A stretch of DNA of 58,961 bases, filler included, from Dimargaris cristalligena (lineage: Eukaryota), in the NCBI GenBank assembly GCA_003614675.1. It is 6 parts of 6 records of this genome, joined end to end, with 100 filler letters (N's around TTAATTAATTAA, not from the genome) between each part and the next. Parts side by side here need not be neighbours in the genome. Positions count along the whole stretch, not along the records: positions 9,859 to 19,612 come from ML003236.1; 5 more parts are not named here. The stretch is one strand, 5' to 3'. Positions 1-27,847 of the stretch are shown here, in pieces. Positions within the stretch are counted from its first letter, which is position 1; every line of letters begins with the position of its first letter. Below the pieces are notes generated by a model. It saw nothing but the letters and a program-made list of their open reading frames with translations. It did not search any database and was not told the origin of the DNA. The position numbers and the translations under genes were made by a program.

Positions 1-552
1 TTTTCCGTAAAAATATTACTTTCCCCGAAGTAGAAAGGAAAAATTTTCTAGCGAAAATTTGTTTCTCTATCTTTCTCCTTCTTTTATTCCTTCCTACCAG
101 CCGACCCTATTAGTTTATTCTATTTTTACGTTCAAATTTGTCTCTGCCGTGTTCTTTACACTTGTACACGACGACCTTTCGGTTATTATAGACCGTGGAC
201 TTGTCCATTGAGCGAAATAAGTATCGCCAATAAATAACAAAACGTCGACGGCATCTATTAACGATAATATGTGTATGGGAGAATATATGGGAAATCTATT
301 TTTAACTAGTAATATTAGCCGAATCTAATGAATTTTTCGTTATATAGCTCAGATGAACTTCTCCCATATTAACTAAGTCCTGGGCCAGTGAAAAATTGTG
401 ACTGGAAGGTAAGGAAGTGCCTATTTATCCCCTGGAAGCCCATTTTCTACTTAAAATCCATTCCGTGAATCTTCTATTGTTCTTTTTACGTGTGCCGCTT
501 CGCCTAATTCTGCTATAATATTATTGACAACGACCCCAATGGATCTGTTGCC

Positions 553-3069
553 ATGCGTTGTCCTCCTCTAAGCTTCCGCACAAGTCACCCGGGTAAAAGT
601 GGCTCTATTCTAGCTCGCCAGCGGAAAACGGGCGGGGCTGGACTATGTGCCTCCTCTCTACCACCGACTCAACCGGCAGTAGGGTGCCGACTCCCAAGCA
701 CGCCATGCGTCCTTCCATTGACCTTCATCGGGCGAGCCCAAGTCCGCACCCACCTACTGCTAACCCATGAAATCTGTTCCGGCGGGGTGCATTCAAAGTC
801 CCGGGCCTACAGCACGAGAAGTAAACCATCGTCGAATGAGCCCCACGACCCGACCCTCTACACATTAGTCAAACTCCTCCAGGCCCACGTTGGAAAGAGG
901 GCATTCAACGACAGCTGGCAAATCTACCGCCAACTGAAAGACCAAGACGCCCTCCATGCCATCCCCAGTTTCCTATGGCGTCAGTTACTCTTTTTCTATT
1001 CCCAGTTGGATGAGGTCAACTACCCTCCCCGCACGGGCTTTACACCTACGACCCGGTCCGAAGCCGCCGAAACGCCCGAAGCCCGGATCCTGCATAAAGT
1101 TCTCTATATTCAACAGAGCATTGAAACCGCCCCGGTGATTATTGACGTGACCATTCGCGGGCGCTTGAATCAGATGGCCCACGATTGGTTAGCCCTGTTT
1201 CCCACTTCTCCGATTTCGACAACTGAGCAGACGGACCCCGATTTTCAGCTGGTTTACGGGTCTCCGAAGGCGAATCTTGATATTTTCCAAAATGAATCGC
1301 CGGCGAGGACCAACCCTAGCGTTAACCCCACGACTCTAGACCTGAATGACCTACCCCCTTTTTCGGCGGTGGATTACCGGACTCTCCTGTATATTTTTAA
1401 CCAGCTTCGGGACCCCCAGGCGATGTTACACGTGCTTACCCACAAGCTAAAACGACAATTCGAGCCCGTCGGTGCCGAAGGCAATGCTCTTATGATCGCC
1501 TACCAACTAAATGACGACTGGGAGGGGAGTCGGCAAGTCCTGGACCTCCTCCAGAAGGATAAGTGTACGTGGGATTCCGACACTTACAAAATTGTGATTC
1601 GTATGAATGTGGAGACGGGCCACATCGTAGAGGCCGGCCGGCTATTAGAAGAGCTGATCCAACTCGGCTATATCCCAGAGGCCCGTCTGGTTAGTTTTGT
1701 TGTCCTAGGCTTGGCCCAGCAGTGGGCGTATGGTGATAGCGCTGCCGGGGCCCTGAAGACAACTCTCCGGCGGGCGCGACTGGAGCGCAAGAACCGACAT
1801 TCCTCAGTGGAACGGGCCCAACTCCACATGAGCCTCACCCGACTTTTCCAGGAAATGCGAACCCGGCCCGGGATGGTCTGGGATACCCGTACGGTGGAAA
1901 ATCTCATCAGGGCCTATGCAACCCTAGGCGAAATCGACCAGGCCTGGGCCCTCTTTTACGAATTACTCAACGAAGCCGACCCCACGGTCGATTTCGAGCG
2001 CTTCCAAACCGGTCCCCTTGACTATATCACTAGGCCCGTCGACGACCATCGGATCACTTATTCCCTGGACCACCGCTACCCGGGGCTGTACACCTACAGC
2101 ATCATTGTCAACACCCTCCTCAACGGCGGCGGCTTGATCCGCCGCATTCCCATCCTCTATGACTACCTGGCCTCCCAAAAAACCCAGGCACCCTTTTCCG
2201 CCGGCCGTTCCCAGCCGAGCCCGACCAATTCCTTACCCGGTCGGCTAGGGTCCGCCAGTGTCCTGCTACTCACCGACTTTATGTTGGCCTTTGGCCGGCT
2301 GGGCCGTACCCGCCAAATCCGGGACATTTTCGTGGCCCTCAGCGAACAACGCCAACTCATTGAACCCCGGCACTTCAACAAGATTTTACAGGCTTTTTGT
2401 TTCGGCCGCGATATGGAAATGGGACTAGCGCTTTACGCGCGATTTGCCCTTGGCCAGGTGCAACTGATGGGGGAGAAGGGAGGGCCACCATCCTCCCAAG
2501 CGCTCTTCCTATCCGAGGAGCTCCAGGAAAGTGTTCGGCTCTTCCCCATTCAGCACGACTTAGATGCCTTTGCCTATAGTATTATTATCAACGGCTGTAT
2601 CCGCTGTAACCGCCTGGACTGGATTCCAACCATCGAAAAGGACCTGGTGACGAACCCTACCATCATGGAAAGTCAGGTTGTGCAAATGGACTTGATCATG
2701 GCCCACGCGGCGGCCCGGGATGCCACTGGAGTGCTTTGGCTGATCCGGCAGTGGATTGCCCGTCAGCAAGCGGCGAAAAAGGCATCGCCGTCCTTGGCTT
2801 CATCAGCGCTACCGATACCGCCGCCCCCTACTTTTCCAGCGAAACTCGCCAGTAAATCGTATACCTATGTAGAAGGCGATAACTTGAAGTTCCAGGATTT
2901 CGTGGCCATGAATGTGAACCCATCCCACGTCAACCGACTATTTATCGCGCTTACCAAAGTCGGGGCGTGGAATAGCGCCAACCAGGCAATGCATTTTATG
3001 CAAAGATACCTTAAGATGAATGTGGATGCCCTTGCCCGTGCGGAAGCCCTGAAGCATATTGATCTATAA
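553..3069 (+). CDS. Pentatricopeptide repeat (PPR) protein, probably mitochondrial RNA-binding (838 aa)
   Basis: Uninterrupted ORF with several PPR-like 35-aa motifs (TYKIVIRMNVETGHIVEAGRLLEELIQLGYIPE; TVENLIRAYATLGEIDQAWALFYELL; HFNKILQAFCFGRDMEMGLALY; AYSIIINGCIRCNRLD). The R/S-rich, acid-poor N-terminus resembles a mitochondrial presequence. Confidence 0.8.
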   Translation: MRCPPLSFRTSHPGKSGSILARQRKTGGAGLCASSLPPTQPAVGCRLPSTPCVLPLTFIGRAQVRTHLLLTHEICSGGVHSKSRAYSTRSKPSSNEPHDPTLYTLVKLLQAHVGKRAFNDSWQIYRQLKDQDALHAIPSFLWRQLLFFYSQLDEVNYPPRTGFTPTTRSEAAETPEARILHKVLYIQQSIETAPVIIDVTIRGRLNQMAHDWLALFPTSPISTTEQTDPDFQLVYGSPKANLDIFQNESPARTNPSVNPTTLDLNDLPPFSAVDYRTLLYIFNQLRDPQAMLHVLTHKLKRQFEPVGAEGNALMIAYQLNDDWEGSRQVLDLLQKDKCTWDSDTYKIVIRMNVETGHIVEAGRLLEELIQLGYIPEARLVSFVVLGLAQQWAYGDSAAGALKTTLRRARLERKNRHSSVERAQLHMSLTRLFQEMRTRPGMVWDTRTVENLIRAYATLGEIDQAWALFYELLNEADPTVDFERFQTGPLDYITRPVDDHRITYSLDHRYPGLYTYSIIVNTLLNGGGLIRRIPILYDYLASQKTQAPFSAGRSQPSPTNSLPGRLGSASVLLLTDFMLAFGRLGRTRQIRDIFVALSEQRQLIEPRHFNKILQAFCFGRDMEMGLALYARFALGQVQLMGEKGGPPSSQALFLSEELQESVRLFPIQHDLDAFAYSIIINGCIRCNRLDWIPTIEKDLVTNPTIMESQVVQMDLIMAHAAARDATGVLWLIRQWIARQQAAKKASPSLASSALPIPPPPTFPAKLASKSYTYVEGDNLKFQDFVAMNVNPSHVNRLFIALTKVGAWNSANQAMHFMQRYLKMNVDALARAEALKHIDL

Positions 3070-3299
3070 GGTCGATGGCCATTTGAGGCTAGCCCGTGTC
3101 CCAAAGTTTTGGGTTTACAAAACCCTAGGTGTCTCAAAATCAATTGATTGACCCAATGTGTGCTTTATAAAGATTATATGATGTTTTACATTTATTTTAC
3201 TGTCAATACCTTTGCTATGTAAGATGGGAGTGGAGACAGGTGGTCTTGGTTTAATTTAATGACTAGAAAATCTGGCAAAGCACCATCCCCCAGAAGGCT

Positions 3300-5354
3300 T
3301 TATGATCCTGGCCTACCAGGAAACAATTGGGAAGGCGAAAAAAAGTTGAATGGAAATGGCGCGGGGTTAGCGACCGGGGTAGCCGTATGCTCCTGTCCCC
3401 AGTTGTAGTAATAGTAAAGATGAGAGTATGAGGCGGGGTGGAAAGCCCCCGATGCGGAAGGCGCTTGGTGGTATGCGTAATCCGTCGGCGAAGGCTTGAT
3501 GGGGGTTGTTTCGGAGAATTTTCTTTTGGGCGCTTGGGTAGTGGTAGTGGCGGTGGTAGCGGTGGAGGATCGGGACTTCTTGGCCCGTGGTTTTGGTCTA
3601 CGCTGAGATTTAACTGGGCCACCCGAACCGGATTCCTTGGCCGCCTTGGGTGAATTTGGTTCGGGTAGGGGTTCGACAGGGACGGCTAGGAGTGACTCAT
3701 ATGCCTGCTGCTCCTCGGGCTGCAGCTGCAGGCGAGGGCCAGCTGTTTTCAAGGATTCGAACAGTTGCTCCAGGGGATCTAAGCTCACCTTAAATTCGGT
3801 TTGAAGGCGGTGAAGCATAGGTCCCTCGAGGGTGGGGGCAACGAGACTGACGGTATAACCGATGGATCCGAACCGGCCGGTACGGCCCACCCGGTGAAAG
3901 TAAGTTTCCGGATCCCACGGCATGTCCCAATTTATAACCAGATCAACCCGGTCGATATCGATACCCCGGGCCATCAGGTCGGAACTAACAATTACCCGAA
4001 TCTGGAAGGCCCGAGCTTTACGCATCACATCCAGGCGTTCGGCTTGGTTCAGGTGGCTGGAAATCCAAACCGCGGGATATCCCAAATGGGTTAGGTAGTC
4101 GGCTAATTGCGGACCCCGCTGGTGGTGATTGAGAAAGATGAGGCACTGGTAAAAAGGCAGGTGGGTAAATAAATCGGCGATGGCTTTCTGCTTGCTCTGT
4201 TGGAGTTGGAAGCGGGCCGGCGCTGAGGTAGGCTCGATAGGAATTTCCAGATAAAATTGGCGAACCCCCGATAGGGTGGGTCCAGATTGGGTGAGGCGCA
4301 CGTGCTGGGGCTGGTGCATGAGATTCTTTTCTAGTTTGGCGAGTAGGGTCTCGTTATAGGTGGCGGAGAAAGCCAGGGTTTGGTGGGGCCGGGGTAGAAG
4401 CTGGGCAATATCCTGTACAGTGGATTGGAAAGACTCTTCCATGAGTTTGTCCGCCTCATCTAAAATCAGAGTACGGAAAGAGTGGGTCTGGAAGGCCCCA
4501 TTGATCAGTAGTTGGCTGAGTCGACCTGGTCGAGAGGTTGAAGGAGGGTTGGAATAGATATTGAAATATAGAGATATATGGGTTAGAGAAGTAGTTCCTT
4601 ACCGAAACAATTCCGTTTAACAAGTAATGGAGGTGTTCATGGGAAATAATGATTAATCAATAATGTAAATCGCGTAATTACCTGGAGTGCCCACAGCGAT
4701 GTGGCATTTGGTGGCTTTGGCGACATCGTCAGCGTAAGGGGTGCCCCCAATAAAGTAGTCGCAGATGCTCAGACCCATGAGCTCAGAAAGATGCTGGATG
4801 ACAGTGTAGCTTTGAAAGGCGATTTCACGAGTTGGTGCTAATATTATGGTCTGGTCGGGATAAAGCAGAATCAAAAAATAACATTATGGGTTAGATAACA
4901 TAAAAATTGTGGGGAAAATAATTACAGAGCCCCCTGCAAATAAGATGGGGTGAATCGATACTGCCTTAAATGTGTAGTGAAAAGGGGGAGTGTCTTTACT
5001 TACATGGAGTCCAACGGCCGCCGCGGCGCCTTCGATGGCCAGGACGCTAAATACAATGGTTTTTCCGGTGCCGGATTTGGCTTGGGCGATCAGGTCGAGC
5101 CCCAGACGACCCAGCGGAATAGCTTTCCACTGGATAGGGGAGGGGCTTTGGAACCCACTCGTTTGTAGAGCTTTCAGTAATTGAGGGTTCTGGATAAGGT
5201 CCTCGAACTCGCCCAGTTTGGCCAAATCGTGGTCAACAGAAGCAGTGTCTTGAGCTGCAGTGGCTCCGGCAGCCGCCGAGTCCGAGTCGGCGGGAATCTG
5301 GCGGTCAGGCCGGGCCAACAGTGGTCGAGCGGGAGGTTGGGCGTCGATCTCCAT
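3300..5354 (-). CDS. DDX20: DEAD-box RNA helicase, DDX20/Gemin3-like (3 exons, ~581 aa)
   Basis: Exons complement(5004-5354, 4682-4850, 3300-4525) with GTAAGT/GTAATT donors and CAG acceptors, frame preserved. Motifs: Q (GFQSPSPIQ), [64 protein letters not shown] and SATY are typical of DDX20. Confidence 0.8.
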
Positions 5355-5872
5355 GTGTGGATAGAGGGAGGGAATTGCACCTCCGAAAGACCGAGTAGAT
5401 CTAATAGTTTATAATGGAAGAGAAGGGTTACCCAAGTGGTAATGCAATTCCAAGTAGGACCGTCCCTTTACGGTAGCCTTTGTTGGCTAAGCCTGTCGCA
5501 GAAGACGAATGGGCCCCCAGATGAAGTCATTGCCTAGGAAAAATCGCACTCTTGCCCGAGACCTTTTGGGATTCTATGGTCGAGGCTATTCGACTCAAGT
5601 CTTCATAAATCATGTCGCGGGTTGCTGCGGTTGACCACAAGCTCATGGAGTGGAACCTTTGTCTTGCATAGTCCTCTATTCGGATTACGTGGAGCGTTAT
5701 GCACCAATAAACCGTACCACTATAGTCCTAATAAAAAGCAGCCGACCCGTTGCGTTAAGTGGCTGAGTCTGCTTTCAACTTGCCTATCTCCAACTTTATT
5801 TCATTCCAACAGTGTTCTTCCCACTACTACACTCATTACTAAATAAGTCTCGCCCGCCTCAATCCGAATACC
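5355..5872. promoter_or_regulatory. Probable bidirectional promoter between divergent DDX20 and NEMF genes
   Basis: 518-bp gap between head-to-head start codons; no specific element identified. Confidence 0.45.
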
Positions 5873-8800
5873 ATGAAACAACGTTTCTCGGCCCTCGATG
5901 TGTGCGCCTCTGTGGCGGACATCCGCCAAAAGGTCGTAGACCACCGTCTGCAGAACATTTACGACGTCAATTCCAAGACCTACCTGCTTAAGTTTGCCAA
6001 ACCTGACAGCAAAGACTTCCTTCTCATCGAGTCGGGCATCCGCCTACACACCACCGACTTTTCCCGGGACAAGGCCACCATTCCGTCCAACTTTTGCATG
6101 AAGTTGCGCAAGCATCTGCGAACCCGCCGCCTCACCGCCGTTACTCAGTTGGGCTTGGACCGTATCGTCGATTTCGAATTCGCTGGTAATGAGCACATCC
6201 CCACCTACCATCTCATCACCGAATTCTACGCCTCGGGCAATATTATCCTGACCGATGGCAACTACCGTATTATGACTTTGCTCCGCGTGGTACAACCGAA
6301 TGAAACCACCCGGATTGCGGTGGACACAATTTACGATATCCAGCAATTTGGTCGGCCGTTTACTCCCATGACCCAAGCGACCTGGGAAGAGCTAGTGGCC
6401 CAGGCCAAGTCCGGGGAAATGGTCAAGAAATTCCTCAACCAACGTACCGTCTACGGTCCCCAGCTGTCCGAACACATTATCCGCACCGCTGGTCTGGAGC
6501 CCAACATTAAGTTTGGCACGGGGCTTCCCCTGACCGCCGACTCGCCGGAGTCTCAGCGTCTGTTAAATCAGTTCGCCGAGGCGGACGTCTGGATTACCCA
6601 CTGCATGGCCCACCCCCAACCAGGCTACATTGTGTTGGCCCCGCCCGCACCCACCGAGATCGCCACTCCCACCGACGTGTTCCTGGATTTCCAGCCGTTT
6701 CTTTTTGCCCAACTACAGGACAAACCCATCCGCAAGTTCGACCACTTCGACAAGGCCGTCGACCACTATTTCTCGCTGCTCGAATCTCAGAAGCTCGAGA
6801 TGCAAACGCGCGGCCAGGAGGAGGCTGCCCTGCGGAAATTGGACTATATCCGTCAGGAACACCTCGGGCGGATCCAGGGCCTGGAGCAGGCCCAGGTACG
6901 TAACGTGGCCAAAGCCAACGCCCTCGACGCCCGCCGGGACCAGGTCGAACAAACGATTGCGGTTATCCGGAACGCCGTCGCTAGTGGACTTAGCTGGTCC
7001 GACATTGACGAGCTGATTCGGGACCAGAAGGCCCAGGGGAATCCTCTGGCGCTGACTATCCACGCCCTCAAATTAGAGTCGAACCGGATTACGTTGGCTT
7101 TGCCCAGTGTCGATTCGAATGACGAGGAGGAGTCTGAATCATCTGAATCCAACGATGACTTATTTGCTACCGATGACGAAGACGAAGATGATGCTGACGA
7201 GAAGGCTGCGTCCAAGGCCCAGGCCTCTAAGAATACTACCAAATCGTCGAAAACATCCTCCTCCACAAGCCCGTCTACTCTTCTCATCGATGTGGATATT
7301 TACCAGACCGTGTTTGCCAATGTCCGGAGCTACTTCGATGTTAAAAAGAAATCGGCATTTAAACACTCCAAGACAGTGGCCGTTTCTCAAAAAGCGCTTA
7401 AGAGTGCCCAGCGGACTATTGAGCATAGTCTTAAAGAAACGCGTATTACTGCGACCATCAATAAGATGCGTAAACCGTTGTGGTTCGAACGTTTCCTGTG
7501 GTTCATCTCCTCTGAGGGCTACCTCGTATTAGCAGGTCGGGATATGCAGCAAAACGAACTACTGGTCCAAAAGCATTTGCAAAAGGGTATGTATTTTTAT
7601 GTATATTAAAACCACGAACGGAGCGATAAATACTAGTCAACTGGATGATACTGTCTGGTCGGAACTATATATATTGTCGATCGTAATTTTGAATAATACC
7701 CCGCATACTAATACTGATCTATTTCTTAACTATATTCATTGTATCGCACCGTCCCATCTACCCTTTAATAGGCGACATCTACGTACACGCCGATCTCCAC
7801 GGCGCGGCGTCCGTCATTGTCAAAAACCACGGCCCTGGAGAGGTCCCGCCTAGCACCCTCCTCCAGGCTGGTATCATGTCTGTGTGTCAGAGTAAAGCAT
7901 GGGAAGCGAAGATCGTTACCAGTGCCTGGTGTGTCCAAGCCCACCAGGTCTCCAAGAGTGCCCCGACGGGTGAATACCTGACCACTGGTAGTTTTATGAT
8001 TCGCGGTAAAAAGACCTTCCTACCGCCCGCTCAGTTGGTCTACGGGTTTGGCATCCTCTTTCGGCTGGAGGAATCCTGTATTGGTAAGCATTTGGCCGAA
8101 CACCGTCGGGACCAGTCCGAAGCGCAGGAACTCTCAGGGGATCTGGATAATAGCCAACCAGCTGAAGTGAACGTAGCGGAGGCCGTCGCCACTGCCGATG
8201 AGCCTACCACCGTTGTGACTGCGGAAGATTTCGCTAAAGCCAGGGCCCGGTACAATTTGGACGATTTGAACCAACCAGAGGCGAACGATGAAGGCAATGC
8301 TGCTGCCCCATCGAATCCTAAAAATGGTCACCCCGACGTCGGACCACCCGCTCCGAACCAACGCCGCCCGTTGACCGCCAAAGAACGCCGGCTTCAGCGC
8401 CAGAATCACAGCAAAGGCCCGGAACCCGCCCCCAAACCTAAAGCTGCCCCACGTAGTCGCAGGGGAAAAACAAAAAAGAAGTCGGCCCAACAGGAGGACG
8501 AAGAATGGGAGCGCAAACTTCAGCAGCACCAGGCGCCATCCGACCTATCCGAATTCGCCCCACTAGCCAACTCGGAACCTGAGGCCGGGGCCGAAGCCGA
8601 AGCGACGGACTCGGCCGGTCCTTCCTTATCCACTAACTCCCCAGAGGTCTCAACCACAAACCCCCAACCGGAAGAATCGGCGCCTGTAGCCCAGGATCAG
8701 ATTTCGGTTTCCGAATCGGATCCCCGTCAGAATGCTAATGAAGCGGCCGAAATTCGGCAATTGCTCCTGGAAGAGAACATCGTGCCCATTGAACCCGAAG

Positions 8801-9123
8801 ATAATGTGTCTCTTCTGGACTCTCTGACGGCCACGCCATTTGCCGATGATATTTTATTATCTGCCGTCCCGGTTTGCGCCCCTTACACGGCCCTCCAAAA
8901 CTACAAGTATAAGGTCAAGCTGACCCCAGGTACACTGAAAAAGGGCAAGGCCTGCAAGTCCGCTCTGGCTGTGTTTTTGACCAACCCGGAGTCGACTGCC
9001 CAAGAAAAAGCCCTGATGAAAAGCGTGCCTGATACCGACCTCATATCCCAAATGCTGGCCAAAGTGAAAGTGTCGGCCCCTAACCTCGAACTGGCTAGAA
9101 AATCTCTGAAGAAAAAGCGATAA
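5873..9123 (+). CDS. RQC2: Ribosome quality control subunit NEMF/Rqc2 (2 exons)
   Basis: Exons 5873-7586 and 7772-9123; intron GTATGT...TAG. Splicing restores QKGDIYVHADLHGAASV. Motifs MKQRFSALDV, DRIVDF, WFERFLWFISSEGYLVLAGRDMQQNE, SKSAPTGEYLTTGSFMIRGKK, VCAPY..LQNYKYKVKLTPG..KKGKA. Confidence 0.95.
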
Positions 9124-13371: not shown

Positions 13372-15737
13372 ATGAAGTCTTCCACACTGTCGACCGTGAT
13401 TGCTCTCGGCACCCTGGGTGCTGCTGGCCTGGCGTACGTCGTCTACTTTGATTACAAACGCCGCAATGATCCCACCTTCCGTCGCAAGCTCAGTAAGTCA
13501 CTTTATCTTCGAGAATTGGGTTATTAAGGGTTATTTATATTGTGCGGTCCCGAATTCGTCGCCAAGTACAACTATAGGCTAGCATAATTGGGCCAATGAT
13601 GTCCATATCCTTACATCCTACTAATTCAGATATTACTCCTTTTGAATCGCAATACATCAGAGCGTGAAAAGAAGAAGGCCTTGAAGGACCAAGAGGAGAA
13701 GGATAGCATGAGTCAATCCCAGCTAGTCGTGAGCATCGAACGGGCACTGACCAAGGCCCTCGAGGAGCCCTTCCCGGCCGACCCCACCATGAAGGAGAAG
13801 ATGTTTATGGAATGCGTGGCTGAGGGCGAAAAGTTCGTGGCCATGGGCGAGACAGGTTTCGAAAACGCCGCCATTGTGTTCTACCGGGCTCTCAAGGTGT
13901 ACCCCGACCCCGTGGAGCTTATCATGATCTACCAGAAGACCGTGCCCCAGTCGGTCCTGAGCATCATCATGGGTATGCTCGGTCAGGATGTCAAGCGCCG
14001 CCAGGACACTTATTACGATAACTTCCCGCCCAAGTCTATGAACGTGACCATCAAGAGTCTTCCCGAGGGCGCTGAAAAGACTGACCCCAAGTACCACAAG
14101 GGGGCAGTTGCCGCCAAGGACTTCGCCATTGGGGATATTATCTATACCGAAGATCCCGAGGTTTCGCTCCTGATGCCTTCCCTCCAGGTATGCCCCAGAC
14201 CATTCTCCATTGCCCCTGGGTCTCCTATTGATAGCATCGAGTAGAAGGGGGAGCGTAGTGCTGTCCTTTACTGTTATTGATGGGATTGGCCCCGACGTAC
14301 CGTAGGCGTTCCGGGAATTATTTTATTTGTCAACGTGTTTCATTTACTAACCACACTCCTTTTATTGCTTTTTTGGTTTTCTGTCCGTAGGATGCCCCCT
14401 ACTGTAGCTTCTGTTTGAAGTACCTGCTTGACGACACTGAGGCACCTACCTGCGATTCCTGTAAGAAGGTCCGTTACTGCTCCACCCAATGCAAGGACAA
14501 GGCTTACGACGAGTTCCACCGTTACCTCTGCCCTGGCAATTACGCCGACCCCCACAGCAAGGCCCAGGAGCTCTTTAACCTATGGTCGGATAAGAGCGAG
14601 CTCTCGACCCTCATGATCGCTCGCTTCTTTGGTCACCTGATTGAAGTTGAAAAAAGCCGCCAATTAACCGCTGGTGAAGGCGACTTCACTGTTTGGGAGC
14701 GTATGGAACACCTCAAATTCCTCGAGCTGCCCGATTCCGCCATGGATCACTCCCGGCAAAATCTGATTAATGAGCTCATTTGCAAGAAGGTTCCCGGTCT
14801 GGATGAATTCATGACCGACGAGCGTTACCTCAGCTTCAAGGGCAAGTTGCTTTACAACGCTATTGCTATTCGCTCTGATGATCCCGAAGCCCCTTCAGGT
14901 ACTTCGACCGAATACGTGCGCTCACCATCCAACCGGGGTGTCAAGGGCTCCGGCCTGTATCTGGTATCCAGCTACGTGACCCACTCCTGCCAGCCCAACA
15001 CCGTTCCCGTGTTCCCCAAGGGTACGCATAAACTGGCCCTCAAGGCCACTCGGCCCATCAAGGCGGGTGAAGAACTCTCCATGAGCTACATTGTGCCCCA
15101 GGACCGCTCCGCGGAGGCCCGCCAGGAGGAGCTCGTTGAAAAATACCGTTTCCGCTGTAGCTGCCCTGCCTGCGAGACCGAAAGCGAGATCAAGTCTGAG
15201 GAGAAGCCGAAGACCGAAGTTAAACCTGAAACCAAGCCTGAGGCTGAAGCCGAGCCCGAGTCTGAAGTCCTGGTCGAAGTCGAAGCCGAGCCTGAGTCTG
15301 AAGTCCTGATCGAAGTCGAAGCGGAACCCGAGTCTGAAGTCCAGGTCGAAGCTGAAGCCGAGCCCGAGCCCGAAGTCCAGGTCGAAGCTGAAGCCGAGCC
15401 CGAGCCCGAAGTCCAGGTCGAAGCTGAAGCCGAGCCCGAGTCTGAAGTCCTGATCGAAGCCGAGCCCGAGTCTGGAGTCCTGATCGAAGTCGAAGCCGAG
15501 CCCGAGTCTGAAGTCCTGATCGAAGTCGAAGCGGAACCCGAGTCTGAAGTCCAGGCCGAAACCAAAGCCGAGTCTGAAGTCCTGGTCGAAGTCGAAGCCG
15601 AGCCCGAGTCCGAAGTCCAGGCCGAAACTGAAGCCGAGTCAGAAGTCCAGGCCGAAACCGAGCCCGAGTCCGAGTCCGAAGTCCAGGTCAAAGCTCCGTC
15701 TAAAGGCAAAGCTAAAAAAGGAGGCCGGAGAAGATGA
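13372..15737 (+). CDS. TOM20: Tom20 (MAS20) mitochondrial import receptor fused to a SMYD-type MYND/SET domain and an acidic repeat tail (3 exons, ~664 aa)
   Basis: Exons 13372-13492, 13661-14187, 14391-15737; donors GTAAGT/GTATGC, branch points TACTAAT/TACTAAC, CAG/TAG acceptors, frame preserved. Signal anchor plus YFDYKRRNDPTFRRKL and FYRALKVYPDPVELIMIYQKTVP (Tom20); GAVAAKDFAIGDIIYTEDP (SET-N); CSFC..CDSC..YCSTQC..HRYLC (MYND); THSCQPN, GEELSMSY (SET-C); FRCSCPAC (post-SET). Confidence 0.9.
15249..15690 (+). repeat. Coding minisatellite, ~36-bp unit (GCCGAGCCCGAGTCTGAAGTCCTGGTCGAAGTCGAA), ~12-13 imperfect copies encoding (A)EPESEVxxExE
   Basis: Head-to-tail repeats visible in DNA and protein; all length variants stay in frame. 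Confidence 0.95.
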
Positions 15738-16881: not shown

Positions 16882-19369
16882 ATGGACATTCCAACTACCA
16901 AGTCAAGCGCCGAGTACATTAACATCGGTGCCAATGCTGTTCCACTATCCGCAGTATGGGCCCCTGCGCCTGCCAAAGGTTCGAGCTTTACCCGGGGCTT
17001 CGTTGCTTTCGGGGCTAGTAACCAAGTAGCGCTCTTTGACCCCCTTGTAAGTAACCCAGTTTTTTTAGTGCTTTTAGTAAATGTTCATCCGCCCTTTCTA
17101 CTCTCGACCTTAGAATGTCGGGAAGGGCCTGCAATACCCCCACCTGCAATATCGGATTACATCATTGTAGTCGGTATAGCCAAGGAAAAAAATCCCCTCC
17201 ACAATTAACCTATTGTGACGCTGGTTCATTCTTGTACTGTATTTTATATTTATCACTAGGACCCTAAACAAACTGGGGTACGCTTTACCCTAAAGGGGCA
17301 TACCGCGCGCGTCAATTGTGTACAGGCCATTCAGCCGATCTCAGCGGAGGGGAAGCTTCATACCACTGCCCTTGTCTCGGGTTCGGCCGACAAAACCGCC
17401 CGAATTTGGCGTCCATCTCCAGCGACTGGCCGGTGGGTGTGTACCGCCGAGCTCACCGGGCACACCTACCCTGTGATTAGTGTGGGTGTCCTCCCCCGCC
17501 CTTCCGATTCTGACAATAATGGTATTCGGGTCGGTGAGGGTGATCTTATCGTCACGGGTTCCACCGATGGGACCCTGCGAATTTATCTCCGTACGGACCC
17601 GGCTGAATCCGAATCCGAGTCCGACCGTGACCAAATCCAATTCCTGCAGAGCATATCCTGCGGTTCCCGCCACCCTCTCGCCATTGCGCTGGCCTACCTT
17701 CCGCACTCCAACATTCCCATCCTGGCCACCGGTAATACCGATTCCAAAATCCATATCTATGCACCGCAGATGTCCGCTGATTCAGATACCGCAGAAGCCA
17801 CTCCACTCTTCACTCACCTTTTGACCCTCGCAGGTCACGAAAGTTGGGTTCGCTGCCTGGCTTTCGGGCAATTCACTGAAGGAGGCTCCGATTATTTGCT
17901 GTTGGCCTCGGGTGCCCAGGATAAGTATATCCGGCTTTGGAAGATCAAGGGCTATGTGCCCGAACCTATTGCGGCCAGCACAGATAACTCAGGCACACTC
18001 TCTTCCGAGCAGATGCTCGAGGCGCTCCAGGCATCGTTTGGTCAGACTGGCGCCATGGTCCGGGATTATTCCACAACTACCCAGCTAAGTACTAAAACCC
18101 ATTTACTGGTGATCCGCAGTGATGCGGGGTTGGCCCGCTTCACGGTAAAAATTGACGCTGTGGTGCTGGGTCACGACGACTGGGTCTACAGCGTTCAGTG
18201 GCATCCCGCCCAGAACACGGATGACCGCCCGGCTTGCCTCTTGTCGGCATCAGCGGATAAATCCATGATTCTTTGGCGACCCGATGAGTCTACGGGCATT
18301 TGGATCAGCGAAACCCGTGTGGGCGAAATGGGGGGCACTTCTCTTGGATTTTACGACGGTTCGTTTAGTCCGGATGGGCAGCAGATTATCGCCCACAGCA
18401 CAACTGGGGCATTCCATCTTTGGTCGCTGCCTTCTGAAACGCCCGGAACCGACGACAGCGACGATAGTAGAATCGTGGGCCAATGGCAACCCCAGAGTAC
18501 CATCAGCGGCCACACGCGGTCCGTGCAGGACCTCGCCTGGGATCCTACTGCCCGGTATCTCGTCTCGGCCAGTCTAGACCAGTCTGCCCGCCTATTTGCC
18601 CCCTGGCGCCGCTCCAACACCGAGGGACCCGTGCAAACATGGCACGAAATTGCCCGTCCACAGATCCATGGTTACGATTTGCAATGCCTGGCATTTACGG
18701 GCCCTTACCAGTTCGTGTCGGGGGCTGACGAGAAAGTCATCCGAGTCTTTGACGCCACGGGTAATTTTATTGATTCGCTGACTGTCATCAGTCAACGGGA
18801 CGGCCCCTTGGTCGATAATGCCGACCGGCCGGTCACGGCTAACCTGCCCCCGCTGGGACTGTCCAACAAGGCCGTTTTCGAAAATGACCTCCAGGCGGTG
18901 GAGGCCCAGGAGGAGGATTTTTTGGCCCGCCAGTACTCCACCGGTGGGCGTGGAATAACCGACCGTCTGCGCCAAGCCCTCGCGTCCCCTCCGCTGGAGG
19001 AGTTCCGGATGCAGCACAGTCTGTGGCCCGAAACGGGCAAGATCTACGGTCATGGCTATGAAATTATCGCTATCGCGGCCAGCCACGACGGCCGGGTGGT
19101 AGCGTCGTGCTGCCGAGCCACCAGCGAGAAACACGCGGTGGTCCGGTTGGTGGACACCCGTACCTGGTTGGAATACGCCGAGCCCTTGCCCGGCCACAGC
19201 CTGACGGTCACTAACCTACGCTTTTCCCCCGACGACCGGTGGTTACTGACCGTCTCCCGCGACCGGTCCTGGAACCTCTACGAGCGTCAGCCCACCCTCG
19301 ACGACCGCGAGCAAGCCCCCTACCGCCGGGTGCAAACCATGGCCAAGGCCCATGCCCGCATCATCTGGG
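16882..19369 (+). CDS. ELP2: Elongator complex protein 2 (WD40); 3' end displaced by an inversion
   Basis: Exons 16882-17046 and 17260-19369 (GTAAGT...TAG). Elp2 motifs GHDDWVYSVQW, LLSASADKSMILWRPD, WHEIARPQIHGYD, FVSGADEKVIRVF, ANLPPLGLSNKAV, LWPETGKIYGHGYEI, HSLTVTNLRFSPDD, AHARIIW. Confidence 0.95.
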
Positions 19370-19612
19370 CCGCCGCCGTGCCCTGGACGAGGAAAATAAG
19401 ACCATTTTCCAGACCCACCGCCAAATGGTAGGTATGGACTGAGCCGACGGAATGTTCCCGGAAAGCGACAGAAGTGACACTTTCGGGGAATTTCAAAGTG
19501 GTGGGGGAAACAGTAGGGCGCGTCGGGTCGGCAGCCGAACATTCCCAGATTTTCACCGTTTTATCTCGCGATCCTGTGGCGAACCAGCGACCGTCCGGAC
19601 TCCAGCTGGCGT
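19370..19612 (-). CDS. ELP2: Inverted continuation of ELP2 (next WD40 blades, partial)
   Basis: G19369 joined to the reverse complement from 19612 reads ...[27 protein letters not shown]...VTSVAF...YHLAVGLENGLIFL, the expected Elp2 continuation. Confidence 0.9.
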
Positions 19613-23342: not shown

Positions 23343-26309
23343 TTAGGCTGTAGGGACTAAATTAGTAAAGATTTGAATCGGCTTAACCAGTAAGTCCACA
23401 TAGGCTAAATCCGAAACAGTGGATTCTTCGGATGGATTATCATCGTTGTCGTCGCTTGTGGCCTGCGAAAGACACCGCTTCTGGTCCGAAGAGGAATTCC
23501 GCGAAAGCGAAGCGTCAATTTCGGGGCATTCTAAAGGATACGCTAGAACCAGCGCGAGTTCGACTGTGGATAATCCACTATAACCCGACAGTGAGTGACC
23601 CACGGTAGTTTGAAGACGATATGAAAGGGGCCCCGTCGGTGTAAAATGGATCAGTGGGGGTTGGAAGTAGACGTTGGTAAAGTCGGGCAGTGTCAGCCGG
23701 ATCCGGATGGCACTAAGATCGTGTATCCAATAGAGGGTTGCCTCGATGGTCAATGATAGCGGAAAGGCCCCCAGGACGGTGAGGGGTTTATCGGGATTGC
23801 TAATGGGTTGGGTTATATTGACCGACACGGGTTTAAAACAGTCACGGTCCCCGCAGGGCTCTAGTTGCAGCTGCTGGGCAAATCGGTATAACTGGCTATT
23901 GAATTGCGTTGCTGGTACTTCGGTTTGCACCAGCTGGGCACGGAGAGCCTGGAGCTGGGGCGGGTCCTGGCCGACCCGACGGGCCCGCTGTTGCACCTCG
24001 CGCAAACGGTCTAGCAGAGCCGGGCGGGATACCCGCCGCTCCCCCTTCGACGCTGGAATGAAGGTAAACAGGATATGGGCGAATAACCGCAGTAGCCCCA
24101 GCGCATACCGGGTTTGCGGGGAATGGCCCAGATAGGCATGTTCCAAGCGGTAAGCCCGGGCCATGAGGTCACCCGGGAGATTACACCAGGCCGCCGTATC
24201 ACTGGTGCGACCGACCAGGGCCTGGGCATTAAGCACCAAGGCCAGCGATTGCAGAAACGGCTCAAGGAAATGGCGGGCGTAACTGGCGGCCTGGTGGACC
24301 ACTGCCACTTGGACGAGCTTACCCGGTGCCGGCGTGATCGGGGACGGGTCAAAGGCAATCGTTGTACGGAGCTGTTGGATTTGCTGTCGGATAAAGCGCT
24401 GCGCTCGACTACGCTGGCCTTGTTTAACGAGGGTCAGTACAGCCGGAATACGCAGACAAATGTCACGGGGGACGGCGGTGATGTTATCCAATCGAGCCCG
24501 TGGAACGATAGACGTCTTGAGGACGGAATCGGTGAGGTACTCGGTAGCCCGGTCGCGGGCCGCTCCACCTAGACGACGGGGTTCCGGGAAGCAGTCAGGA
24601 AATTTGTCATGCAGGTAGGGGATATAGTTGAAGATAAACGGGGGTAAAATGGACATGAACGCCGAACGGTTTTCAGCGGCGTTCAGAATGAGGGCGAGGT
24701 GGGCCGTGAGCACCAGGTCGTCCTGGTTAATCTCCCGAGTCAGGAAATGTTTTTCAATTTTCAACAATTTCTCCACTAGGGCCGAGTCAATAGAATTGCG
24801 GTGGCGGTAGCCCACGGACCGCAGACAGCGGTATATACTGGCTTGGTCGTCGGAGTGGCGTAACAGACTGTCACTGAGGGTCTCCACGGTGGTCATGAGG
24901 GCGGGCACGTCGGCCAGGAGTACCGAACTCACTAGACTATGAATACTCTGACGAATTTTCGGGTCGGCGTCTTCCATTACCCCAAAAATAATCTGGAGCT
25001 GCTCTCTATCCAGTGTAATGGGGTAGCGGGAAGCAATCTTGGTCAAACTGGTGATGGCATTCAGGCGCACATAGTCAATTTCGTCATTGAAAATATCCAC
25101 CAGGTAGTCAACGGCCTGCTGCGAAAATTCGGCGGATTGGAGGCATAGTTCGCAGATGGAATTAATGGCGGCGTTGCGTACTTCGCGGTACTCGTCCTCC
25201 AGGCCGTGCACGAATGCCCCGCACGCCCCCGAGTCTAAAATCCGAAAATCGTCGGATTCCACGTCCATATCCCCTTCTGCGACGGGGATAATGTTCCGGT
25301 TAGACCGGCCCGAGCCACCGTCCCGCTTGGAGCCCCCCTTGGCGAACGCCGGCCGCCGTTTCAAGTGGGACATAATCTTTTTGCTCAGGGTTTGGGAGAG
25401 ATAATTGAACTGAACGTCGAAGTAGCTGCCCAGGAGCACACAGGCCTCCGTGCGGATGGTCATGGAAATGTCATTGACCATATCACACACCTTTACGAAG
25501 GCGTCGTCCACTAGTCGGATGGAGTCGCTGTAGTCGTGCTTACGGACCTCAATGACTTCTAATGGGTACAGTTTGCTGATGAGCCACACGATTCGAAGGG
25601 CGCCCAGCCGTACATACTCGTAGTCATCTTTGAGGCATTCAACGCTGACGGGGTACAGTGAGGCGCTAAGGGGATAACCCGAAAGATGGCAGTAGTATAT
25701 TAAATCTAGGGAGGCTTTGCGTACTTTGGGGTGGGGGTCGTGAATGAACCGGCTCAGAGTGGCCGGTAGCTGTTCGTCTAGCTCAGGGACCCGATCCAGC
25801 AGCAGCCCATTGGCCCGAGCCAAAGTATTCAGTAGGGCGTAGAGTTTGAGGGAAATGACCCGGACCTGGGCCGTAAAGTTATTAATTTCTGAGGTAATTC
25901 GGCGGAGGAGGGCCCGGAAGGGGGCGCCGCCTTCCTGCTGGACCAGGGTATGGATGAGCGAAGGGTCGGCCAACAACAATTCGTAGAGGGTGGCCAATAG
26001 GGATCGGGTCGTCTTGGGTGGTTCTTCGGCGGTAGCCCCCGCTGAGTCGGCGGTGGTTAAGACTCTTAGGAAACGCTGAAAGAGGGGCCCGCGTGCAAGA
26101 CCAGGGTGAAAGGCGACTCGCGTACCGATGCGCTGGAGGAACAGCCCGTCTTCGGCATTGGGCTCCGCCTCTAGGCGCTCCTCGATGGCTCTACCCATGT
26201 GGCGAATCGTTTCATGGTCGAATAAAGGTAGAAGGTCAGTCAGTAGCAACAAGCCTTCGGTGCGGCGACTCAGATTGGGAGCTCGAATGAGGTCAAGTAA
26301 TTCCCGCAT
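23343..26309 (-). CDS. INTS4: Integrator complex subunit 4 (HEAT repeats, 988 aa)
   Basis: Long intronless ORF with motifs RLVDDAFVKVCDMVND, QTLSKKIMSHLK, DSGACGAFVHGLEDEYREVRNAA, LVDIFNDEIDYVRLNAI, matching the conserved INTS4 core. Confidence 0.88.
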   Translation of the reverse strand: MRELLDLIRAPNLSRRTEGLLLLTDLLPLFDHETIRHMGRAIEERLEAEPNAEDGLFLQRIGTRVAFHPGLARGPLFQRFLRVLTTADSAGATAEEPPKTTRSLLATLYELLLADPSLIHTLVQQEGGAPFRALLRRITSEINNFTAQVRVISLKLYALLNTLARANGLLLDRVPELDEQLPATLSRFIHDPHPKVRKASLDLIYYCHLSGYPLSASLYPVSVECLKDDYEYVRLGALRIVWLISKLYPLEVIEVRKHDYSDSIRLVDDAFVKVCDMVNDISMTIRTEACVLLGSYFDVQFNYLSQTLSKKIMSHLKRRPAFAKGGSKRDGGSGRSNRNIIPVAEGDMDVESDDFRILDSGACGAFVHGLEDEYREVRNAAINSICELCLQSAEFSQQAVDYLVDIFNDEIDYVRLNAITSLTKIASRYPITLDREQLQIIFGVMEDADPKIRQSIHSLVSSVLLADVPALMTTVETLSDSLLRHSDDQASIYRCLRSVGYRHRNSIDSALVEKLLKIEKHFLTREINQDDLVLTAHLALILNAAENRSAFMSILPPFIFNYIPYLHDKFPDCFPEPRRLGGAARDRATEYLTDSVLKTSIVPRARLDNITAVPRDICLRIPAVLTLVKQGQRSRAQRFIRQQIQQLRTTIAFDPSPITPAPGKLVQVAVVHQAASYARHFLEPFLQSLALVLNAQALVGRTSDTAAWCNLPGDLMARAYRLEHAYLGHSPQTRYALGLLRLFAHILFTFIPASKGERRVSRPALLDRLREVQQRARRVGQDPPQLQALRAQLVQTEVPATQFNSQLYRFAQQLQLEPCGDRDCFKPVSVNITQPISNPDKPLTVLGAFPLSLTIEATLYWIHDLSAIRIRLTLPDFTNVYFQPPLIHFTPTGPLSYRLQTTVGHSLSGYSGLSTVELALVLAYPLECPEIDASLSRNSSSDQKRCLSQATSDDNDDNPSEESTVSDLAYVDLLVKPIQIFTNLVPTA

Positions 26310-27847
26310 GGCCCAAGTTAAGGGTTAGAAATGGTACTAGACGATCTAATGAGGAGAGGTGTCTGAAGGTAAAAGACCAGGAATTCAACGATGGTGAAGG
26401 GGATAAATTGGCGAACAGTCCGCTGAAGAAGGAAACGGTAAAGGAATCTTCGAAACGTATGGGCATTGGAAGTCCTACTCTTGTGGAATTACAGCTGGAT
26501 GCCACCTCATTAGCTTGACCCAAGTCAGTTTCCGCGTTTTTACAGACGCCCTCAATTTTGGCTGGGCTTTATTGCCTTAAATTCCAAGCCTCGTTGGTTC
26601 TTAAGCATAGGGGCTCATTATCAATAATACGATAAGCACACTAACAATAGAGAATACTGGCTGCAGTACGAATTGACATTATCCATACGGTATATAAACC
26701 TAGGCTGCTACCCAAGCCCATCACCCCGGCCCGTACTAATCAAGCTACTACATAGACCAGTCCAATACCAGTCCTGTCGTCCGCAATTAGATACTAAGGA
26801 AGGGTTGGCCAAGGCGCTTGAGCAGCTGGGAATTATATATATGGGAGTAATTCAACAAGGCTGTATAACAAAAAATCCATTTGATAAGGCAAATACTACT
26901 GGTTGAAAATAAACATACCACCGATTTCCCCATACGCATAACAGTTAAAACCCTATACAACCGAGCTGAACTTCACCCATATTCATTGAAACTCGCTACT
27001 AGCACCGTATATTGGTGGGAAAAGATCCTACATGCGCTAATAAACTGTGCCGCTTTTGTAAGAATTAATTTTAACCTTATGATTTGCGGCGATGTTCACT
27101 TTTTGTACATTGCGAGGATAAAGCGACATAATAGGGCAAAATACTGTACTAGAAACGCGGCCCAGTCCTAGAAACATCTATGACCAGTCTATTGTAAAAG
27201 GGGAAAATTATTACCACCCCAATGAAAAAATATATTACCCGTAAGTTATCTGAAAAGCAGTTTACTTGCCCAGTGCAATTCACCGCCGAAATAATAGGTA
27301 TCGGAATGGACCTTGTGTTGCACTACCAGCCCTCGAAGTCCATAAAGGCGCAATTGGTGAACTGGCAGGCGCGCGATCAGTGGCTTAAGTCATGTATTAT
27401 TTTCGGTAAACAGGGCCCGGATGACTCGAAGGCGGGCTCCCCATCCAACTTGGTGGCCTGGGCGTGATTTTGCAGTCTCCAAATGGCCCGCTTAGCCGAA
27501 TGGTTTGCGGGAGTTTTTCTGAGGTAAGCTGGTCAATTTACCGGAGAGGGACCTGGCTGGACAACCTTCCCAAAAATAACCAGTCCCGGTTGCGAATAAC
27601 GAAACGAAGAGGCTCTACCCCCTGCCTAATTCGTTGACGATTACCCTCTCCCAAACGCCGCGCCCTACAAGATTTACCGCTGGAGTTATTGGTGGGTGGT
27701 TCGGGCACTTTTAACACTCGGGACCTTGAGAGGCAGTTTGGCCTCATACCTGACCTCAGCGATTCCTAAAGTGCCTCAATAGCCCATCGAATTCGTTTAT
27801 ATTTTCGGAGATGAATGAGGCTGGAAAGTAGGGCGCGATTTATGAAA

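Follow-up and report, generated by a model that had tools for sequence, protein, structure and literature searches.

A Dimargaris cristalligena gene that joins the mitochondrial import receptor Tom20 to a SMYD-type SET/MYND lobe

Can a Tom20 import receptor and a lysine methyltransferase be parts of one and the same polypeptide? This question is raised by a locus of Dimargaris cristalligena, a mycoparasitic fungus of the Kickxellomycotina, that lies at positions 13372-15737 of a stretch of 58,961 nucleotides (nt) made of six joined parts of assembly GCA_003614675.1 (the window). Tom20 is the textbook presequence receptor, and in ascomycete yeasts, Neurospora, and animals it occurs on its own as a small protein. 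To our knowledge, work on Tom20 comes almost entirely from these organisms. An earlier reading of the locus, made from the sequence alone and called here the original prediction, proposed a Tom20 fused to a methyltransferase module with MYND, SET, and post-SET parts of the SMYD type. We examined whether the gene is real, whether its product has both folds, whether it is likely to be the working Tom20 of this fungus, and whether the attached lobe is likely to be an enzyme.

We confirmed that the locus is a real three-exon gene. On the plus strand, the sequence and its stop-to-stop open reading frames (ORFs) join in frame from an ATG at 13372 to a TGA at 15737 to give a product 664 amino acids (aa) long. 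Exon 1 (13372-13492) contains the ATG start and comprises 40 codons plus 1 nt, exon 2 (13661-14187) comprises 2 nt plus 175 codons, and exon 3 (14391-15737) comprises 448 codons followed by the TGA. Intron 1 (13493-13660) is 168 nt long and in phase 1, with a GTAAGT donor at 13493 and a CAG acceptor ending at 13660. Intron 2 (14188-14390) is 203 nt long and in phase 0, with a GTATGC donor at 14188, a TACTAAC-like branch site, and a TAG acceptor ending at 14390. Retention of intron 2 leads to an in-frame stop at 14242-14244 (ORF 13600..14244), which is the stop that the original prediction had placed at 14244. Exon 2 matched an annotated 664-aa protein of D. cristalligena (P0001) with 100% identity over 100% of its length, the translations of exons 1 and 3 were also found within P0001, and both splices reproduce it. 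Thus, the predicted gene of three exons with canonical splice sites in one frame matches the annotated protein exactly, under the labels of hypothetical protein at NCBI and SET domain-containing protein in UniRef. The junction between the MAS20 (Tom20) part and the first SET strands had also been placed inside exon 2, and it does lie there, intronless and in one open frame. Since the junction is within this single exon, the fusion is independent of the splice calls and is not a merged gene model. When all six frames of the window were examined, this locus was the sole MAS20 match.

The protein starts with a hydrophobic anchor (about 13390-13452, residues about 7-27) that is followed by a K/R-rich stretch, and this segment aligns with its N-terminal equivalent in a solved Tom20 (9i7s chain K). 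This anchor, the basic flank, and the start of MAS20 are encoded by exon 1, and the remaining cytosolic domain of MAS20, to residue 144, is encoded by the first part of exon 2 (13661-13971), as judged from both Pfam and the structure match described below. With a cut-off of 27 bits, Pfam MAS20 (PF02064) scored 41.7 bits on exon 1 (profile positions 2-29) and 86.3 bits on exon 2 (profile positions 36-131). The second part of exon 2 (13972-14187) shares its open frame with MAS20 and encodes a linker (RQ..YY..FPP..NV) and the N-terminal SET strands. The SET domain is split by a MYND finger, with N-SET encoded by exon 2 and C-SET by exon 3. The MYND zinc finger (14403-14531, exon-3 residues 5-47) scored 27.0 bits with Pfam zf-MYND (cut-off 22.7). 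It is followed by a helical insert between MYND and C-SET (14532-14945) that is I-SET-like, includes N372, corresponds to helices 248-372 of the predicted structure, and falls within the alignment to SMYD proteins. The C-terminal SET core (14946-15089) was delimited by Pfam SET (37.1 bits, cut-off 22.4) and by residue alignment to SMYD3. It contains a T-H-S-C motif (14979-14990) where SMYD proteins have N-H-S-C, and ends with Tyr449 in the sequence ELSMSY (15087-15089). The post-SET motif, C-x-C-x-x-C (C472, C474, and C477; 15156-15173), aligns to CDCFRC of SMYD3. All three of the predicted domains, MAS20, zf-MYND, and SET, were therefore above the Pfam cut-offs.

Comparison with solved structures gave the same two folds. 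By sequence, the best match was a Tom20 (chain K of 9i7s; E = 1.4e-26, query residues 7-160), and SMYD3 (3.3e-13), SMYD2, and SMYD1 came next, with E values from 3e-13 to 8e-9. We obtained an AlphaFold2 model with a mean predicted local distance difference test score (pLDDT) of 77 and a predicted template modelling score of 0.68. Means for blocks of 10 residues were 70-98 over residues 11-490, there was a long helix at residues 3-32, and disorder (pLDDT <50) began at about residue 490-496. A Foldseek search with this model ranked SMYD3, SMYD2, and SMYD1 at the top (E about 1e-14, about 326 aligned columns), and against Tom20 9i7s_K it gave a template modelling score of 0.71, normalised to the target, with 39% identity. 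VIA-align placed model residues 20-154 on residues 22-156 of the Tom20 chain (Z 15.8, root-mean-square deviation 4.1, 134 of 135 residues). For SMYD2, SMYD3, and SMYD1, it aligned about 270 residues from model positions of about 164-497 with Z scores of 21-22, and for SMYD2 the Z score was 22.4, with model residues 166-497 on chain residues 6-287. Model strands 169-211 are within the stretch that aligned to SMYD2 from residue 5 onward. These results agree with the domain order that had been read from the sequence, in which a signal anchor and a Tom20 domain are followed by a split SET with MYND finger and a post-SET motif. The C-terminal helical domain of SMYD1-3, which is tetratricopeptide repeat-like, had no counterpart in the fusion, and the alignments ended at SMYD residues about 285-300. 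Since this domain is absent, the link between SMYD proteins and Hsp90 does not transfer simply to the fusion, and we do not favour SMYD-like docking of Hsp90.

The protein ends with the acidic tail that had been predicted, a disordered region with a short basic end before the TGA stop (15183-15737; pLDDT <50 from about residue 496). Tandem Repeats Finder identified in it a 36-nt (12-residue) tandem repeat with 12.9 copies (15246-15693) that lengthens the protein by about 150 residues. The proteins of the other four Dimargaritales finish soon after the post-SET motif, at 459-490 aa, so the expansion of the repeat looks recent and species-specific.

A search of longer proteins with exon 2 as the query identified 46 proteins in which MAS20 is followed by MYND, SET, or both. 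They come from five Dimargaritales, Mycoemilia, five Harpellales, twenty Mucorales, Umbelopsis, three Glomeromycota, ten Agaricomycetes, and one unnamed source. More fused proteins were found in Basidiobolus, Piptocephalis, Podila, Ambispora, Spiromyces, Dipsacomyces, and Paraphysoderma (Blastocladiomycota) by searching 1.84 billion representative sequences with the MAS20 part and by look-ups, and the Pfam domains were confirmed in all of these taxa except Ambispora. No ascomycete was present among the 46 fused matches and 10 further named proteins. Judged by this distribution of sequences, the family is old and widespread, from Blastocladiomycota to Agaricomycetes. Among the Glomeromycota, Acaulospora, Racocetra, and Ambispora have fused models, and Gigaspora margarita and an unnamed relative (P0306 and P0130) have short MAS20-only models with a Val-led tail soon after the last helix. 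Such short models could be truncated, or they could be a further read-through form. The representative library also contains MAS20 with odd partners, namely a protein kinase, a RhoGEF, and a NACHT-ankyrin protein. Together with the Botryobasidium model described below, these are P0182, P0235, P0289, and P0187.

The architecture itself is already known. A survey from 2022, which dealt with the SET proteins of fungi in 20 representative species, described a 'Group 25' with MAS20 upstream of SET, listed no Ascomycota member in it, and gave the functions of such groups as unknown (PMC9692433). In the accessible part of that survey, the account of Group 25 deals with architecture only and contains nothing on mitochondria, splicing, or catalytic motifs (PMC9692433). 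As far as that part shows, Group 25 and the family described here agree in domain order and in their non-Ascomycota pattern, and the D. cristalligena protein adds to it the tandem-repeat tail. We found no functional study of Tom20-SET fusions in the literature, which was covered mainly as titles and abstracts and excluding subscription journals, and at the title and abstract level nothing on this gene in the literature on D. cristalligena. The original prediction had pointed to similar MAS20-SET architectures in some fungal annotations without a functional study, and this holds for Group 25 as accessible to us; the fungal survey that it called for yielded the 46 fused proteins and the further taxa, none of them ascomycete. 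Thus, the D. cristalligena protein adds one more member to a family that is documented but uncharacterised.

We then considered whether the SET lobe has the residues of an active methyltransferase. In a residue-level sequence alignment, His414, Cys416, Tyr449, Phe470, and the cysteines C472, C474, and C477 align with SMYD3. Y449 aligns with the Tyr of ELTICY in SMYD3, and C416 together with C472, C474, and C477 aligns with the SMYD3 cysteines; in SMYD-type enzymes the post-SET cluster and the Cys of NHSC make up a zinc site. Across the aligned fused proteins, H-S/A-C is retained in 17 of 46 and the post-SET CxCxxC in 19 of 46. The proteins that keep these motifs are from Dimargaritales, Glomeromycota, Umbelopsis, Mycoemilia, and Agaricomycetes. 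The residue that precedes the His in the 17 motif-bearing proteins is Asn in three and Thr in seven, including D. cristalligena, and NHSCEPN, the fully canonical form, occurs in the fusions of Basidiobolus and Spiromyces. The MYND cysteines C221, C224, C246, and C250 are invariant in the 46 fused proteins, and both K368 and N372, as well as F162 and P163 of the linker, are present in at least 90% of them. In the five Dimargaritales the SET parts are 47-65% identical per domain, compared with 66-72% for MAS20. This level of identity indicates that the SET lobe is under constraint (purifying selection).

Taking the gene, the folds, and the motifs together, we lean modestly towards a joint reading in which one polypeptide combines a membrane-anchored, working Tom20 with a SMYD-type lobe that would bind S-adenosylmethionine and methylate lysines. 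Several points weigh against it. The Asn of the canonical NHSC is replaced by Thr413, which makes the cofactor pocket non-canonical. H-S-C and the post-SET cysteines have been lost in 19 of 19 aligned Mucorales rows and in five of five Harpellales; the remaining one of the twenty Mucorales proteins, that of Mucor circinelloides, is truncated ahead of the C-SET motifs. Because the motifs are lost in these two groups, a conserved role of the family may not require catalysis. The AlphaFold2 model took as its input the alignment of the 46 family members, and the search for proteins of near-Tom20 length, made with a profile of seven MAS20 parts, returned 570 proteins, of which the best 120 were examined.

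The main alternative is that the SET/MYND lobe is a non-catalytic pseudoenzyme, a binding or regulatory module that extends the recognition or docking of Tom20, with the MYND finger or the substrate cleft as possible contact sites. The Mucorales and Harpellales proteins without H-S-C or post-SET cysteines belong to a family in which the MYND cysteines are nevertheless invariant and N372 is kept in at least 90% of members, and 14 of the 17 motif-bearing proteins, that of D. cristalligena among them, have replaced the canonical Asn. In Mucorales and Harpellales the lobe is probably just such a non-catalytic binding module. However, D. cristalligena and its order have kept the His, the Cys, the Tyr at the catalytic position, the aromatic residue ahead of the post-SET, and the full CxCxxC, the canonical motif survives in Basidiobolus and Spiromyces, and the loss of motifs coincides with lineages that have duplicated genes (Mucorales) and looks like secondary decay. 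We consider this alternative rather unlikely for D. cristalligena. From the pattern of motifs, the SET lobe is probably an active enzyme in Dimargaritales that has undergone secondary decay in Mucorales and Harpellales, and methyltransferase activity of the fusion is plausible but unproven.

A second alternative concerns the Tom20 half. The fused protein could be a paralogue in which the Tom20-like anchor merely tethers a methyltransferase, with import carried out by a separate plain Tom20 encoded elsewhere in the genome, as in Mucorales. Exon 2 alone was too insensitive as a query for proteins of near-Tom20 length (5 matches) and was replaced by the seven-sequence profile. Among the best 120 of the 570 proteins, a plain Tom20 of 161-184 aa with its own tail was found in many Mucorales that also have a fused protein, for example Radiomyces, Cokeromyces, Absidia, Gongronella, Hesseltinella, Apophysomyces, Rhizopus, and Lichtheimia; plain Tom20 also occurred among these 120 in many Basidiomycota and in Ascomycota. 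The fused and plain proteins of Radiomyces (P0008 and P0081) each come from a contig of 1,914,128 bases and those of Cokeromyces (P0012 and P0082) each from a contig of 2,298,495 bases, so that in both cases the two genes may share a contig. The Kickxellomycotina differ from this pattern. All 17 named homologues from this group are fused, or are partial but already include the linker and first SET strands, and none of the 17 is a plain Tom20. They comprise five Dimargaritales, Mycoemilia, Spiromyces, Dipsacomyces, Linderina, two Coemansia, five Smittium, and Furculomyces. Within the 1.84 billion representatives, the only sequences with more than 50% identity to the MAS20 part of D. cristalligena were the protein itself, a fusion from Tieghemiomyces, and four short partial matches, so no plain Tom20 was present among the closest representatives.

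A phylogeny of the MAS20 part bears on the same question. The tree was built quickly by maximum likelihood from an alignment with 72 rows and 155 columns, and its support values come from the Shimodaira-Hasegawa-like approximate likelihood ratio test (SH-aLRT) only. Its rows are 34 of the 46 fused proteins, two partial Coemansia proteins, 35 named plain proteins from the 120 listed, and one partial Mucor protein, and it omits unnamed and redundant rows. The tree tracks taxonomy and not architecture. The label of fused or plain changes nine times on it, and at least seven of these changes are forced by starred branches. The plain proteins of Mucorales form a clade (support 95) that is nested in a Mucorales-only clade with fused copies (support 98), which points to a lineage-specific duplication and not to one that Dimargaritales have in common with Mucorales. 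MAS20 is, in addition, the best-conserved part of the protein. Thus, although Mucorales species do carry both forms, we regard a mere tether in D. cristalligena as quite improbable. The sequences support the fused protein as the sole Tom20 of D. cristalligena but do not prove this, and since no stand-alone Tom20 was seen among the named Kickxellomycotina homologues, the fused form is probably its working Tom20.

Agaricomycetes present a different arrangement. In the MAS20 tree their fused and plain rows interleave by family, as with Agaricus and Leucocoprinus, with Lyophyllum plus Sphagnurus and Tricholomella, and with Auriculariales and Exidia. No basidiomycete species was in both lists, that is, the 46 fused proteins and the plain proteins among the best 120 of 570. 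The family-wise interleaving and this lack of overlap suggest that in basidiomycetes one locus has been modelled in two ways. Some of the Agaricomycete fused models include the tail of plain Tom20 in frame and others skip it.

To look at the DNA of such loci we scanned metagenomes and retrieved 80 loci, of which about 30 have MAS20 and SET colinear over about 2.3 kb. In the Agaricomycete-like loci, an exon with the last MAS20 helix and the conserved tail lies upstream of the exon with the SET linker. A stop codon closes this tail exon at 28 of 28 non-duplicate sites; of these, L045 is probably a spurious match of the regular expression. At 26 of the 28 sites, and at 25 of 25 found with a stricter pattern, the Val-Ser that opens the Tom20 tail is encoded by GT[AG]AGT (for example, L003, 2886-3343), which is the consensus for a 5' splice site. 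At these sites the Ser codon is always AGT and the Val codon always GTA or GTG, and the adjacent codons vary synonymously. Of the 18 loci in which the linker pattern was found, 17 have a micro-exon of 19 nt, bordered by AG and GT, between the tail and the SET exon. When the upstream exon, the micro-exon, and the SET exon are joined, the frame stays open and the junction of the annotated fused proteins is reproduced. From these DNA signals, the embedded donor and the in-frame micro-exon, Agaricomycetes appear able to make a plain Tom20 (unspliced) and a Tom20-SET protein (spliced) from one gene, and the fusion appears to be under selection in Agaricomycete-like loci. Among cDNA-like intronless contigs in the 80 loci, the single-frame MAS20 ORFs were all plain Tom20 of the ascomycete type but two, and these two had neither a linker nor a SET motif. 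We found nothing on alternative splicing of Tom20 in Basidiomycota in the literature, with subscription journals outside the coverage.

The residues around the D. cristalligena junction match the spliced form of basidiomycetes. Because the junction in D. cristalligena is intronless, the fusion is expected to be constitutive at that point. The loci of ascomycete type (L034-L073) and basidiomycete type (L002-L032) have a common intron right after the VPK/VFK of the last MAS20 helix, and on read-through of this intron the next codon is Val (GT...). The D. cristalligena gene has no intron there.

That an annotation artefact has wrongly joined neighbouring Tom20 and SET genes is hardly credible for D. 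cristalligena and was rejected at the DNA level, for although some public models of the family are over-merged (the MAS20-SET model of Botryobasidium ends with an Hsp70 fragment and is probably such a case) and basidiomycete models of the same locus disagree, MAS20 and the first SET strands share a single uninterrupted exon, there is no separate start for the SET part, conservation of the linker extends across phyla, and the domain order is identical in the 46 proteins and others.

The two halves of the protein can be compared with well-described systems. Tom20 of Chaetomium thermophilum, seen in the holo complex of the translocase of the outer membrane (TOM; 9i7s chain K), likewise has an N-terminal anchor, a basic flank, and a helical cytosolic receptor domain. 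Plain Tom20 ends at about 160-230 aa with a short acidic tail, whereas the D. cristalligena chain continues with a SET/MYND lobe of 330 residues and an acidic repeat of 180 residues. Human SMYD2, SMYD3, and SMYD1 (3tg5, 5ex3, and 3n71) likewise have a split SET, a MYND insert, a helical insert, and a post-SET CxCxxC, and their active-site His, Cys, and Tyr align with those of the fusion. However, only about residues 5-287 of SMYD2 are matched, the identity is about 20%, and Thr stands in place of the NHSC Asn. Unlike the SMYD proteins, the D. cristalligena protein would, by analogy with Tom20, be anchored in a membrane. The fused paralogues of Mucorales and Harpellales, such as those of Radiomyces, Rhizopus, and Smittium, have the order of MAS20, linker, N-SET, MYND, and insert in common with D. 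cristalligena and are 36-48% identical to it in MAS20. They differ from it in having no H-S-C or post-SET cysteines and, in Mucorales, in being accompanied by a separate plain Tom20.

A precedent for methylating lysines of a mitochondrial precursor ahead of its import is Ctm1, a methyltransferase that acts on cytochrome c in the cytosol. As described, Ctm1 and the yeast SET-MYND proteins Set5 and Set6 differ from the fusion in having no Tom20 domain or membrane anchor. In the accessible part of the fungal survey, Set5 and Set6 belong to 'Cluster 3' of the fungal SET proteins, as does Group 25 (PMC9692433).

The neighbouring ORFs in the window are ordinary eukaryotic housekeeping genes (spans 508-9123, 17260-19431, 23343-26324, 42423-44933, and 51008-53251). 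They include genes for a pentatricopeptide repeat protein, a WD40 protein, an Integrator subunit 4-like protein, a LIM-binding-domain protein, and an acetyl-CoA synthetase. There is also a DEAD-box helicase ORF on the minus strand (3300-4598) and an NFACT/Rqc2-like gene in two frames (5843-7609 and 7693-9123).

The structure of the gene, the presence of two folds in its product, and its membership in the old MAS20-SET family are shown by the analysis. Under the joint reading that we prefer, a single polypeptide would run from the anchor and Tom20 receptor through N-SET, MYND, insert, C-SET, and post-SET to the disordered acidic repeat. By analogy with the topology of Tom20, it would be anchored in the outer membrane with everything beyond the anchor in the cytosol, where it probably serves as the working Tom20 of D. 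cristalligena. The pattern of motifs points to a SET lobe that has probably kept the ability to bind S-adenosylmethionine and to methylate lysines. From its position, candidate substrates would be those present at the TOM entry gate, namely incoming precursors, TOM subunits, and docking chaperones. Relatives appear to have resolved an ancestral gene in different ways: by a splice switch in Agaricomycetes, by duplication and decay of motifs in Mucorales, and by keeping only the plain form in Ascomycota.

A wider scheme can be put forward tentatively, and as a whole we think it possible but doubtful. In this scheme the fusion would be the ancestral Tom20 of fungi, already present in Blastocladiomycota, and the only Tom20 of Kickxellomycotina, D. 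cristalligena among them, would be tied constitutively to an active lysine methyltransferase, so that import and methylation would be coupled physically at the TOM gate. The two would have been uncoupled later by an alternative 5' splice site in Agaricomycetes, by duplication and decay of the SET motifs in Mucorales, and by loss of SET in Ascomycota.

The architecture is already in databases and in one survey, so the value of these observations is in function and evolutionary pattern and not in the discovery of a fusion. If the gene for Tom20 also carries a SMYD-like methyltransferase in a large part of the fungal kingdom, an enzyme would be placed where precursors and chaperones arrive, as part of the only form of Tom20 in some lineages, and this would connect lysine methylation with mitochondrial import in a way that can be tested. 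The apparent splice forms of mushrooms, the duplicates of Mucorales, and the loss in Ascomycota are natural experiments on the role of SET. The fusion may be the ancestral form of Tom20 and, in Kickxellomycotina, the only one.

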